IMG/VR virus record: IMGVR_UViG_2551306526_000001
Length of the DNA stretch: 20,028 nucleotides
Strand: one strand, 5' to 3'
Origin: a virus
Lineage: Duplodnaviria; Heunggongvirae; Uroviricota; Caudoviricetes
The position numbers were made by a program. Within the stretch, counting starts at the first letter, position 1, and the number at the start of each line of letters is the position of its first letter. Of the stretch, positions 1 through 3,000 are shown piece by piece.

Positions 1-3000
1 ATGACTCGAGACGATCTAGCATTCGATATTCATTATTCTTTCTTTCTTGAGAAAATGAATTACACCCTTTTAAATCGGATAGACAAGAGCATAACTCTTG
101 TTCTCATTGTCTTGGGCTTTTCTGTTTTTGCGCCATATAGCAATATGTTTATTTTTGGCGCATCTGTAGCTATTTTGTCGGTGCTTCAATTGGTATACCA
201 ATTTGGGCAGGAAGCTGGCTTATCAAAGGAACAGATGCGACAGTATAAAAGGTTGATTGTTGAGTTTTCCTCCCTTTCTGATGACGAACTACGCACTCGG
301 TTTTTAAAGGTTCAAGACGCTGATAGTAATCCATGGAGATCTTTACAAGATGCTGCGTTCAAACGGACCTGTATTGCGCTGGGACGTGTTGATGAGTCAG
401 AAATATCATTCATGCATAGCGTTATCGCATGGTTTGCTGGAGATTTGCCTCGGTCAAAAAGGTGTAATAATGACAAATAGAATTCCCATAATCCCTAACC
501 ATGTACCTCCAAAGCCCAGACCACCATCACCAAAGTCACACAGGCTTTATGAGTATGAATTAATAATGGATTCTATATTGAGATGACCAAATGAATGCAT
601 TTATATATACATGGAAAGAGGATCATATCCCCTTAAAACCTCGTCCTTCACCGCCAGAACCGAAGCCAAAATCCCGTTAAGTGTTGGGGATCTCCAGATT
701 GTTAAAGAGCGAAGCGTCCTATAGGGCGCTTTTTTGTTGCTAACGAATCATCCTGGACTTCATATGCCCCAGGCGGCTACTTCGTGGGCGTCCTGCCTGT
801 TCGTTGTTTCGCTTGGGTACATTATGTATCTCAAAGGTACATTGTCAAGTATAAAAAAACCTGCCGAAGCAGGTTCATAAACATTGATTAGGCTTTGATT
901 TTGTATCTTCTTGGTTTTCCTGAGAAAATCACTGTACCAATTATAGAGCAATTACCGTTGATCTTAATGTAAGGCTCAGGCCAGTTTGGGTTTAACGCTT
1001 TGAGATAACGCTGTGTCCCATCTTCTATCAACCTTTTGAAGGTGGTTTCACCTGTATCGTGCATCAATGCAATAACGTCGTCACCGTGGCAGGCAGGTAC
1101 TTCAGGATCGACAAAAATCATGTCTCCCGGGCGGTACTCATCAATCATTGAATCACCTATCACCCGCAAGATATAAGTCATTTCCCCACAGGGTACAGGG
1201 CAGGGATACGTTTCTGCTGTGCTCAAATCAACCTCAGAATATCCAACTTCTTTCCATGCTCCGGCCTGTACCCATGATATGACAGGGACTAATGTGATTT
1301 GTTTATTAGTGATTGAAACATCAGGTTTTTTTGTGATGTTCGTTGTCTGGTGTTCTTGATCGAGCCATCCGACAGGCAGGTCGAAACATTTTTCGATGTG
1401 TCGTGCCATGCTGTCACCGATATTTTTAGTAGCACCATCTCCCATAAACCTGCTGGTCTGGGTTGGCTCGCGATCAATCATAGTGGCAAAGGAAGAATTC
1501 CCGCCAACACCATCTCTCAGTTTTCTGGCGTTAGACCGCCGGATGTCATGGATTGTTTTCATAACGAAATTAAAACCCTTGTACCGTTAAGGTACAAGTA
1601 TCTTGAAGGTTCATTTCAATCATGTAATATGTACACCGGAGGTACATATTGTATGAAAGCGTATTGGGACTCTTTAACCAAAGAACAGCAGGGCGAGTTG
1701 GCCGGAAAAGTTGGCTCAACACCTGGCTACTTACGGCTGGTTTTCAATGGCTATAAAAAAGCCAGTTTTGTGCTGGCTAAAAAACTTGAGCAATGCACGT
1801 CAGGTGCAATTACGAAATCTGACTTAAGACCGGATATCTATCCGAAAGATTAGCAGAACACTTTCAATTTTTAACCACAGAACGATGAGGCTAATCGTGG
1901 GTAAGCATCACTGGAAAATAGAAAAACAGCCTGAGTGGTACGTGAAAGCTGTCAGAAAAACTATCGCGGCGTTGCCGGGTGGTTACGCTGAAGCGGCTGA
2001 CTGGCTCGATGTAACAGAAAACGCTTTATTCAACCGCCTTCGTGCAGATGGCGATCAGATTTTCCCGCTGGGATGGGCAATGGTTTTACAGCGTGCTGGT
2101 GGCACTCACTTCATTGCTGATGCTGTGGCGCAGTCTGCAAATGGCGTCTTTGTGTCTCTTCCTGACGTCGAGGATGTGGACAACGCCGATATTAACCAGC
2201 GTCTGCTGGAAGTCATTGAACAGATCGGCAGTTATTCAAAACAGATTCGTTCAGCAATCGAAGACGGTGTAGTGGAACCGCATGAGAAGACAGCAATTAA
2301 CGACGAGCTGTATCTCTCAATTTCGAAGCTGCAGGAGCATGCAGCACTTGTCTACAAAATTTTTTGCATTTCAGAAAGTAATGACGCCCGCGAGTGTGCA
2401 GCTCCGGGCGTCGTGGCGTCGATTGCTTCTGGTTGTGGAGAAACTAACGCATGAACAGTTTAACAACACACTACCGTCGCTCGCAACTGATTGCGCTTCC
2501 TGTACCGGGTGGAAAAGCGAAGGTGGAATATTGCTATGCAGTGAATGTACCAGGTGACAGGGAAATTGTAACCCACAGCTTTGCAGAGTGGGCTGTGGGT
2601 GATTTCAACCGGCAGAAGGAGACAGTCCTTTGCGACAAGTTAACCGCTGGTTCAAAGATCACTACGGAGTGCCCGTCAGAGTCATTCGTTGGGAGCCGGA
2701 AACACAACGGGTTATCTACCTCCGCGAAGGTTATGAGCATGAATGCTTCAGTCCGCTCGAACAGTTTCGTCGTAAATTCAGGGAAATAGAGGTCGGTCAT
2801 GAGCACTAAATTAACCGGCTATGTATGGGATGGTTGCGCTGCATCAGGCATGAAGTTATCCAGCGTGGCAATTATGGCCCGCCTGGCTGATTTCAGTAAT
2901 GACGAAGGTGTGTGCTGGCCATCAATTGAAACCATTGCCCGTCAGATTGGCGCGGGGATGAGTACCGTCAGAACGGCTATCGCACGGCTGGAAGCAGAAG

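Follow-up and report, generated by a model that had tools for sequence, protein, structure and literature searches.

A SLATT-like two-transmembrane gene accompanied by proline-rich micro-ORFs in a mobile cassette beside the cI-like repressor of an e14/SfV-like prophage

The stretch of DNA analysed here (the window; 20,028 nucleotides of IMG/VR virus record IMGVR_UViG_2551306526_000001, Caudoviricetes) begins on its plus strand with an open reading frame (ORF) at positions 1-480 that is a real, complete and conserved gene for a protein with two transmembrane (TM) helices. The gene is the core of a mobile cassette of about 0.9 kb, in which it is accompanied by a leader RNA and by proline-rich micro-ORFs, and its product appears to represent a distinct, unnamed SLATT-like family, a distant and sub-threshold relative and not a proven member of the SLATT superfamily. 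We read the cassette as a lysogen-expressed conflict module (abortive infection, exclusion or addiction) with the two-TM protein as its effector, a reading that we consider about equally likely to be right or wrong and whose main rivals are addiction of the toxin-antitoxin (TA) type and non-lethal exclusion. The cassette is arranged in the order leader RNA, acidic proline-rich micro-ORF, two-TM gene, basic micro-ORFs and a terminator that belongs to the phage backbone, as follows:

About 9806-9990 of locus L002 (NZ_CP020520.1), immediately left of window base 1: leader and acidic micro-ORF, a conserved element and a 27-aa ORF (the cassette as a whole spans about 9806-10737 of L002, or about 1159449-1160380 of NZ_CP020520.1)
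1-480, plus strand: main coding sequence (CDS), complete from its ATG start, 159 aa; predicted stand-alone SLATT-like two-TM inner-membrane protein (WP_000196297.1; PHROG 6315)
88-207, plus strand: codons of the TM hairpin, whose helices lie at about aa 30-46 and 49-69 and flank the turn A-P-Y-S-N, from hydropathy and AlphaFold2
470-586, plus strand: micro-ORF B, 38 aa, MTNRIPIIPNHVPPKPRPPSPKSHRLYEYELIMDSILR (begins MTNRIPIIPNHVPPKPRPPSPK); it starts at an ATG overlapping the 3' end of the main CDS, and AAGGTG lies 7 nt upstream
591-680, plus strand: micro-ORF C, 29 aa, MNAFIYTWKEDHIPLKPRPSPPEPKPKSR (ends HIPLKPRPSPPEPKPKSR)
711-737, plus strand: Rho-independent terminator of the cassette, with a 9-bp stem (711-732), a tetraloop and a T-run

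The two-transmembrane gene and its product

The preliminary description of this DNA had allowed that the gene may extend upstream of the window. The CDS was found to start at base 1 and to be complete, since RefSeq assigns exactly these 480 bases to WP_000196297.1 (in E. coli genomes with 99.9-100% identity to window 1-900), PHROG 6315 aligns end to end (aa 2-151 on profile positions 3-152 of 152), and a search of 1.84 billion proteins gave homologues that, with few exceptions, are 150-180 aa long and collinear from residue 1. The same length and collinearity rule out that 1-480 encodes the C-terminal fragment of a larger protein, and what does extend to the left of the window is the operon, with its leader RNA and micro-ORF, and not the CDS. 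Close relatives in Enterobacterales number 78 and cluster representatives at E<=1e-3 number 258, and no functional annotation is attached to any of them. Minus-strand ORFs within 1-700 do not exceed 54 aa, and an N-like gene antisense to 1-480 was set aside, these ORFs having received no closer look. The GC content of the ORF, which had been described as AT-rich, is indeed low at 39.8%, in comparison to 44.7% for the cI gene and 49.0% for the window.

The two adjacent TM helices and the soluble C-terminal region that had been proposed for the protein were confirmed by both hydropathy and structure prediction. The Kyte-Doolittle values of 19-residue windows exceed 1.6 at about aa 30-51 and 47-69, and the AlphaFold2 model, built with 35 homologues (predicted local distance difference test score, pLDDT, 79; predicted template modelling score, pTM, 0.68), is all-helical, with a long N-terminal helix that runs into TM1 (3-43), TM2 (49-66) and a soluble C-terminal domain made of helices 68-87, 94-106, 114-127 and 137-145. 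Lysine and arginine residues lie on the N- and C-terminal flanks of the hairpin and none lies in its turn, a distribution that by the positive-inside rule points to a hairpin with both termini inside (N-in/C-in).

The Pfam scan of the protein (E<=1) returned no RexB, SieB, holin or other family, with a lone spurious match to Ion_trans_N (E 0.33), the NCBIfam scan gave nothing significant, no solved structure matched, and a search of viral contigs with the Providencia protein as query found nothing. A match to TIGR04402, named 'mobilome CxxC' (E 0.01, and present in 26 of 35 close homologues), spans only TM2 and the next helix, and the query has no CxxC; because of this partial span and the absent motifs it was not taken as membership.

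Proline-rich micro-ORFs on both sides of the gene

Micro-ORFs B and C fall inside the interval 1-740 covered by the preliminary description, where they were overlooked. Sequence comparison showed the micro-ORFs to be coding and to be constantly associated with the two-TM gene. Those downstream of the gene number one to three per lambdoid-type locus (64 IMG/VR loci and several genomes), are 21-38 aa long, and carry the core motif H-[VIL]-P-P-[KRH]-P-R-P-P, with position and motif recurring in homologous loci; no motif-bearing micro-ORF was found downstream in locus L064. The micro-ORF upstream of the gene is acidic, proline-rich and 24-38 aa long (27 aa in L002, just left of the window), and carries a related motif, ...EE[KR]H[ML]P..[KR]..PP.PPKP.D, that lies 4-10 residues from the C-terminus. 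It was found in every locus scanned but L072, and it is kept even with the copies of about 34% identity in Fels-2, Yersinia phage 42.18 and a Providencia phage. Its stop codon sits within the Shine-Dalgarno (SD) sequence of the main gene (TGAGG), and the distance from this stop to the main ATG is 2-20 nt, usually 8.

For the upstream micro-ORF the differences at the first, second and third codon positions numbered 111, 92 and 522, respectively, and the ratio of synonymous to nonsynonymous differences was 470:148, in comparison to 57:586 and 20:601 in the other two frames. The corresponding values for the downstream micro-ORFs were 121, 91 and 540, and 474:145, in a test that is partly circular because this set was chosen by motif. 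The peptides match no Pfam or PHROG family, and the micro-ORFs are almost never annotated, the upstream ORF of the Providencia copy and that of phage EKP1 being among the few exceptions. In the Pectobacterium protein P0022 the motif is fused in-frame at the C-terminus of the two-TM protein itself, and in its AlphaFold2 model the motif tail has a pLDDT of 72 in comparison to 49-53 for the linker. The N-terminally extended members of the family have no proline-rich motif.

We take the core of these peptides (HVPPRPRPP) to resemble proline-rich antimicrobial peptides (PrAMPs) of insects and mammals, such as oncocin (YLPRPRPP), apidaecin and Bac7, which is a lead only, and presumably the micro-ORFs can also be likened to ribosomal arrest peptides (TnaC, polyproline motifs linked to elongation factor P, EF-P). 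The core common to them and the PrAMPs would be [aromatic/His]-[hydrophobic]-P-(P)-R/K-P-R-P-P, a low-complexity likeness that can be due to chance, the motif being known here from sequence alone. Unlike PrAMPs and arrest peptides, these peptides are encoded by a prophage and would be made inside the cell.

The micro-ORFs may act in cis as arrest or leader peptides, which we regard as possible but doubtful. Polyproline or PRP-type stalling, involving EF-P or release factors, would then tune translation of the two-TM gene, and a ribosome paused at the upstream stop would mask the overlapping SD sequence. The stop within TGAGG, the near-fixed spacing of 8 nt to the ATG, the short distance between the motif and the end of the upstream peptide, and the structured leader RNA immediately upstream all favour such a role, as do the PPP, APP and RPP runs, which depend on EF-P. 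However, the motif-bearing micro-ORFs located downstream could not control the gene that precedes them by such a mechanism, the in-frame C-terminal fusion of the motif in Pectobacterium does not fit it, and the conserved non-proline positions (the invariant His, [VIL] and Arg) point to specific recognition. A protein role of the micro-ORFs is favoured by the downstream copies and the natural fusion, while at least a translational coupling is favoured by the overlap of stop and SD sequence; action in cis is also a sub-mechanism compatible with the conflict-module reading.

The leader RNA

Upstream of the acidic micro-ORF lies a non-coding leader of about 110 nt that is conserved across all lineages, including the phage copies of 23-34% identity. 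It contains two interleaved helices, S1 and S2, that covary in a pseudoknot-like arrangement. Helix S1 (GCCTG/CAGGC) is 96.4% paired in 28 diverse sequences, with three of its five pairs changing on both sides; the observed value was reached in none of 500 shuffles, and slid registers pair at no more than 49%. In 88 unique loci, helix S1 occurs as six fully complementary haplotypes and helix S2 as about ten, with examples such as CCAC/GTGG, CACGC/GCGTG, TCACG/CGTGA, ACCATGC/GCATGGT and ACCC/GGGT. Such a pattern is better matched by an RNA pseudoknot or a two-state switch than by a protein operator. The helices are followed by CCCCAACAACA(A)GGA repeats. Rfam (E<=1) gave no family for the leader in L002, L004, L006, L007 or L008, and the single-sequence minimum free energy fold was uninformative (z = 0.3). 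A separate observation is a sub-threshold Rfam match to the small RNA (sRNA) STnc100 between the cassette and the first early-left gene (L002 9573-9796, minus strand; 39.6 bits in comparison to a gathering threshold of 47, E 2.6e-5).

Possible distant kinship with SLATT effectors

SLATT (SMODS and SLOG-associating two-TM) proteins are experimentally required effectors in the defence-associated reverse transcriptase (DRT) system DRT10, where their activation has been called a central open question (bioRxiv 10.64898/2026.04.29.721553), and a SLATT protein is the effector of a type I cyclic oligonucleotide-based antiphage signalling system (CBASS) (PMC11381338). The 1-480 protein fits this superfamily in its architecture: within about 150-200 aa, a helix at the N-terminus leads into two adjacent TM helices, and a helical cytoplasmic region follows them. 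It resembles the effectors of type I CBASS, DRT10/UG17 and DRT3 (Pfam SLATT_1-6; NCBIfam NF033631/32/34) in size (about 150-190 aa) and architecture and in being carried by mobile elements and prophages, and it shares with SLATT-reverse transcriptase (RT) operons a presumed tight translational coupling to the upstream gene (bioRxiv 10.64898/2026.04.29.721553). In contrast to these effectors, the 1-480 protein stands alone, with no CD-NTase, SLOG or RT partner, its family falls below every curated threshold, and its constant partners are proline-rich micro-proteins of 21-38 aa and a pseudoknot-like leader RNA.

Three independent signals, each weak, point toward the SLATT superfamily. UniRef gives SLATT names to three homologues (P0020, P0043 and P0049). 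Among 113 family representatives, 48 have sub-threshold collinear matches to NCBIfam SLATT_4 (NF033632) and 15 have such matches, likewise sub-threshold and collinear, to SLATT_1 (NF033634), in both cases at E<=1, and residues 36-131 of P0201 align collinearly to positions 33-128 of the 154 of the SLATT_4 profile. In the Foldseek search against BFVD, a set of predicted viral structures, the best matches were mostly SLATT-annotated giant-virus proteins (probability about 1.0, TM-score 0.43-0.63, E 1e-3 to 0.3). The Pfam entries SLATT_4, SLATT_5, SLATT_fungal and DUF4231 were matched only at E 0.01-0.08 and in few family members, and neither a word-indexed profile search (alignment A2) nor a stepping-stone search (P0201) reached annotated SLATT proteins. 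The earlier suggestion that the two-TM architecture resembles small pore-forming effector domains is therefore upheld in part, by the SLATT_4 and BFVD matches, but not to the point of reaching a curated SLATT cut-off.

Convergence with the immunity gene and predicted antisense transcription

The window holds the immunity region of an e14/SfV-like lambdoid prophage, and the following features lie to the right of the micro-ORFs:

699-711, minus strand: exact boxA-type sequence CGCTCTTTAACAA on the transcript of the early-left promoter PL (1 match, 0.07 expected)
742-809, minus strand: leader element of PL, about 65 nt, 86-98% conserved in many enterobacterial temperate phages
821-848, minus strand: near-consensus PL-type early-left promoter, TTGACA-16-CATAAT (11/12)
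825-841, in the PL spacer: putative cI operator TGTACCTTTGAGATACA, a TGTAC-N7-RTACA palindrome
857-876, minus strand: terminator of the cI transcript, followed by a T-run
888-1562, minus strand: cI-like repressor of the LexA/S24 family, ymfK type (Pfam Peptidase_S24, E 1.5e-26; RefSeq ymfK)
1580-1596 and 1630-1646, between cI and the cro-like gene: putative OR operators TGTAC-N7-GTACA, from a pattern search

The two-TM gene converges on the cI-like repressor with back-to-back terminators between them (711-732 on the plus strand and 876-857 on the minus strand), just as had been described. The terminator scan of 1-2000 gave 8 terminator-like sites where 1.6 were expected, and the terminator at 711-737 is phage-backbone sequence common to SfIV and PhiR29_1, in which it serves other cargo genes. 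The operator pattern TGTAC-N7-RTACA gave 5 strand-matches at 3 sites where 0.07 were expected, and since the spacer of the promoter at 848-821 holds the same palindrome as the two sites between cI and cro, this promoter is, judged by its motifs, the repressor-controlled PL.

A transcript from PL would carry, in this order, the 742-809 leader, the 737-711 hairpin and boxA (711-699), would then run antisense through micro-ORFs C and B and the two-TM gene, and past that gene would head toward the early-left genes, an antisense position that the preliminary description did not mention. The boxA suggests Nus-dependent antitermination in the e14/SfV phage group. Lambda has the order boxA-boxB, whereas here the order is reversed, with boxA directly after the hairpin. 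The 742-809 element is carried by SfII, SfV, ST64B, phiNP, YeP1 and others, in hosts that include Escherichia, Shigella, Salmonella, Citrobacter, Klebsiella, Pantoea and Yersinia, and is unannotated in all of these phages; it may function as an RNA of the put/nut type or as an sRNA. The Rfam scan of window 1-2000 placed no family on it, and its single-sequence fold was no better than those of shuffles (z = -0.8).

Mobility of the cassette

Window 1-900 is present in full in 52 of 5426 complete E. coli genomes, and the flanking backbone is present in 1823. Homology to the phages SfV, SfIV and PhiR29_1 begins at 682-742, and each of them carries other cargo in the same slot:

2264-2992 of L009, PhiR29_1: cargo of 242 aa
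2085-2782 of L010, SfIV: gp35/36 (SfIV_35/36)
2678-2974 of L011, SfV: orf33

These cargo genes are unrelated ORFans with no informative domains. The PL/early-left slot next to cI is a hotspot of variable cargo in this phage group, and only this variability points to it as a hotspot of defence genes. The cassette has the marks of a moron (an independent transcription unit inserted in a phage operon), namely its own terminator, an independent orientation, a lower GC content and presence/absence polymorphism. The two-TM protein is encoded in this moron, which lies beside cI on the lysogeny side and has independent termination, and the earlier description of a membrane-protein gene next to the immunity gene is upheld to that extent.

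In other phages the cassette has different neighbours. It lies in the P2/186-like early operon of Fels-2 and of Yersinia phage 42.18, upstream of cI/int and co-oriented with the lysogenic genes in a 186-like prophage of Pectobacterium, and between late genes in a Mu-like prophage of Salmonella, and phage EKP1 has a homologue between Q and the holin gene. The cassette opposes the flanking lytic genes in all contexts except the 186-like Pectobacterium prophage. In Fels-2 (L006, NC_010463.1 about 30200-30800) and Yersinia phage vB_YenM_42.18 (L007) the SLATT-like gene and its micro-ORF are unannotated, and opposite-strand 'hypothetical' ORFs that are probably spurious are annotated in their place (STM2733.1 and vBYenM4218_008, respectively).

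These contexts bear on whether the protein is a lysis-related membrane protein of the resident phage (a holin, an antiholin or a lysis-timing factor), which we find scarcely credible. A small protein with two TM helices would suit such a role, and so would the position of the EKP1 homologue beside the holin gene, but the gene lies on the strand opposite to the lysis or late genes in every context, the lysis genes of the window are located elsewhere than the cassette, no holin family matches the protein, and antisense transcription from PL or the late genes would oppose its expression during lytic growth.

Proposed role of the cassette

From the arrangement described above we infer expression in the lysogen, silencing by read-through from PL, permeabilisation of the membrane by analogy with SLATT proteins, and control by the micro-proteins. 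In the lysogen, cI would repress PL and the cassette would be transcribed rightward from its own putative promoter. Translation of the two-TM gene would be coupled to that of the upstream micro-ORF, as the observed geometry suggests, with the stop overlapping the SD sequence about 8 nt before the ATG. The protein would insert as an N-in/C-in hairpin and, like the SLATT effectors of CBASS and DRT, would oligomerise and permeabilise the inner membrane. The micro-proteins (H-[VIL]-P-P-x-P-R-P-P) may bind the cytoplasmic helical domain and keep it closed, a step for which the natural Pectobacterium motif fusion can be cited, or they may gate its synthesis. An insult, for example infection by another phage, in which the short-lived peptides are lost or translation is disturbed, would release the effector, and its release would result in abortive infection or exclusion, or in post-segregational killing. 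On prophage induction, the boxA-bearing PL transcript would read antisense across the cassette, in the geometry observed, and would presumably silence it.

Several results weigh against reading the cassette as a conflict module. PADLOC-DB 2.0 (5027 models, E<=10) gave zero matches for the 1-480 protein, the protein itself has no SLATT match at E<=10, and no family member reaches a curated SLATT cut-off, the best being P0201 with 23.1 bits in comparison to 55 for NF033632. No CD-NTase/SMODS, SLOG or reverse transcriptase was found near the gene in any context inspected (E. coli, Fels-2, Yersinia, Providencia, Pectobacterium, Salmonella Mu-like, lambdoid metagenomic and EKP1). The downstream micro-ORFs are absent in the distant copies (P2-like, Providencia and Mu-like) and the Mu-like copy has no proline-rich upstream ORF, so that the micro-proteins are not all essential partners, and the confidence of the P0022 tail in AlphaFold2 is weak evidence. 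No consensus sigma-70 promoter was found on the plus strand of the cassette, and expression in the lysogen is therefore presumed only from its orientation. Literature searches turned up no description of the cassette and no report that members of this family are toxic, form pores or confer resistance to phages.

As an addiction module, which we hold to be unlikely, the two-TM protein would be a membrane toxin and the coupled, probably labile acidic proline-rich micro-protein its antitoxin, and the pair would stabilise the prophage or its defective remnant rather than serve in defence. The gene order, in which a short ORF precedes a larger one and is tightly coupled to it, does mimic type II TA operons, and the cassette is kept in a defective-looking prophage and moves among unrelated phage backbones. 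Nevertheless, there is no likeness to any known TA family, the downstream micro-ORFs with the same motif are left unexplained, and TA and abortive-infection roles can coexist. Among known addiction systems, the type I TA loci of the hok/mok/sok kind have a likeness to the cassette in that translation of a membrane toxin (in the cassette a putative one) is tied to that of a leader ORF that overlaps or adjoins it, the mRNA leader is highly structured and an antisense transcript covers the locus (here that of PL, by geometry). They differ in that the 1-480 protein is unrelated and has three times the size, no small antisense RNA dedicated to the cassette was identified, and the leader ORF of the cassette is a conserved proline-rich peptide and not an arbitrary reading frame.

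Superinfection exclusion without killing is, in our view, quite unlikely; the hairpin protein would block DNA entry or a membrane receptor or transporter, as P22 SieA, T4 Imm and HK97 gp15 do, and would form no pore. Its two-TM inner-membrane architecture, the variable cargo slot beside cI and the absence of a sensor enzyme would be expected of such a protein, but the sole signal at the level of families leads to SLATT effectors, control as elaborate as this, both translational and by RNA, suggests that the product is dangerous, and there is no likeness to known Sie proteins. With lambda rexB and P22/lambda sieB the gene shares its place beside cI, its presumed expression in the lysogen and its membrane localisation, and with RexB the notion that exclusion comes about through a collapse of the membrane potential. 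Its product has no sequence or profile similarity to either of them, however, and rexAB shares the transcript of cI and sieB is part of the PL operon, while the 1-480 gene is convergent with cI and runs antisense to PL; in contrast to rex, it has no RexA-like sensor.

A further reading, which we judge improbable, is an enzyme-free immune or addiction switch in which PrAMP-like micro-proteins or nascent chains sense the state of translation and gate a SLATT-type pore, with the pseudoknotted leader setting the threshold. The state sensed would be the availability of EF-P or release factors or shut-off by a phage, and control would be exerted through stop/SD coupling together with direct binding.

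State of the prophage in the rest of the window

The prophage appears to be defective. Two of its ORFs are of note in this respect:

12055-13272: ORF of the terminase large subunit, with the gpA nuclease domain only
14229-16181: N-terminus of tail protein T fused to gpJ domains in one ORF

In addition, a stretch of about 35 kb in intact relatives corresponds to 16.8 kb in the window, with about 18 kb missing, and the nuclease-only terminase ORF, the tail T/J fusion and the missing DNA thus argue for a deletion-bearing, defective prophage. Other observations concern possible cargo. A 148-aa ORF without a Pfam match (7242-7688, minus strand) lies inside the rightward early/late operon on the opposite strand and may be an inverted moron. 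A pair of genes with DUF2971 and DUF4236 (16869-19073, minus strand) is located past the tail-fibre assembly gene and looks like cargo at the right end of the prophage, and it is followed by a helix-turn-helix fragment of an insertion sequence transposase (19750-20028, plus strand).

Implications

The searchable literature describes no phage-borne SLATT-like protein that stands alone and has micro-proteins and an RNA as companions, and PADLOC, Pfam and Rfam have no entry for one. If the gene has no phenotype, what the defective e14/SfV-like prophage carries would be a hypothetical moron of the ordinary kind, an outcome that would also be useful. If the enzyme-free switch were true, it would be the first SLATT effector gated by micro-proteins, and its peptides would be the first bacterially encoded PrAMP-like peptides with a regulatory role. 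A minimal SLATT-like protein with only micro-proteins and a short RNA as constant companions would offer a compact, genetically tractable model, and with this locus a widely mobile cargo cassette, present in lambdoid, P2/186-like and Mu-like phages, joins the lysogen-side genes overlooked by annotation pipelines.

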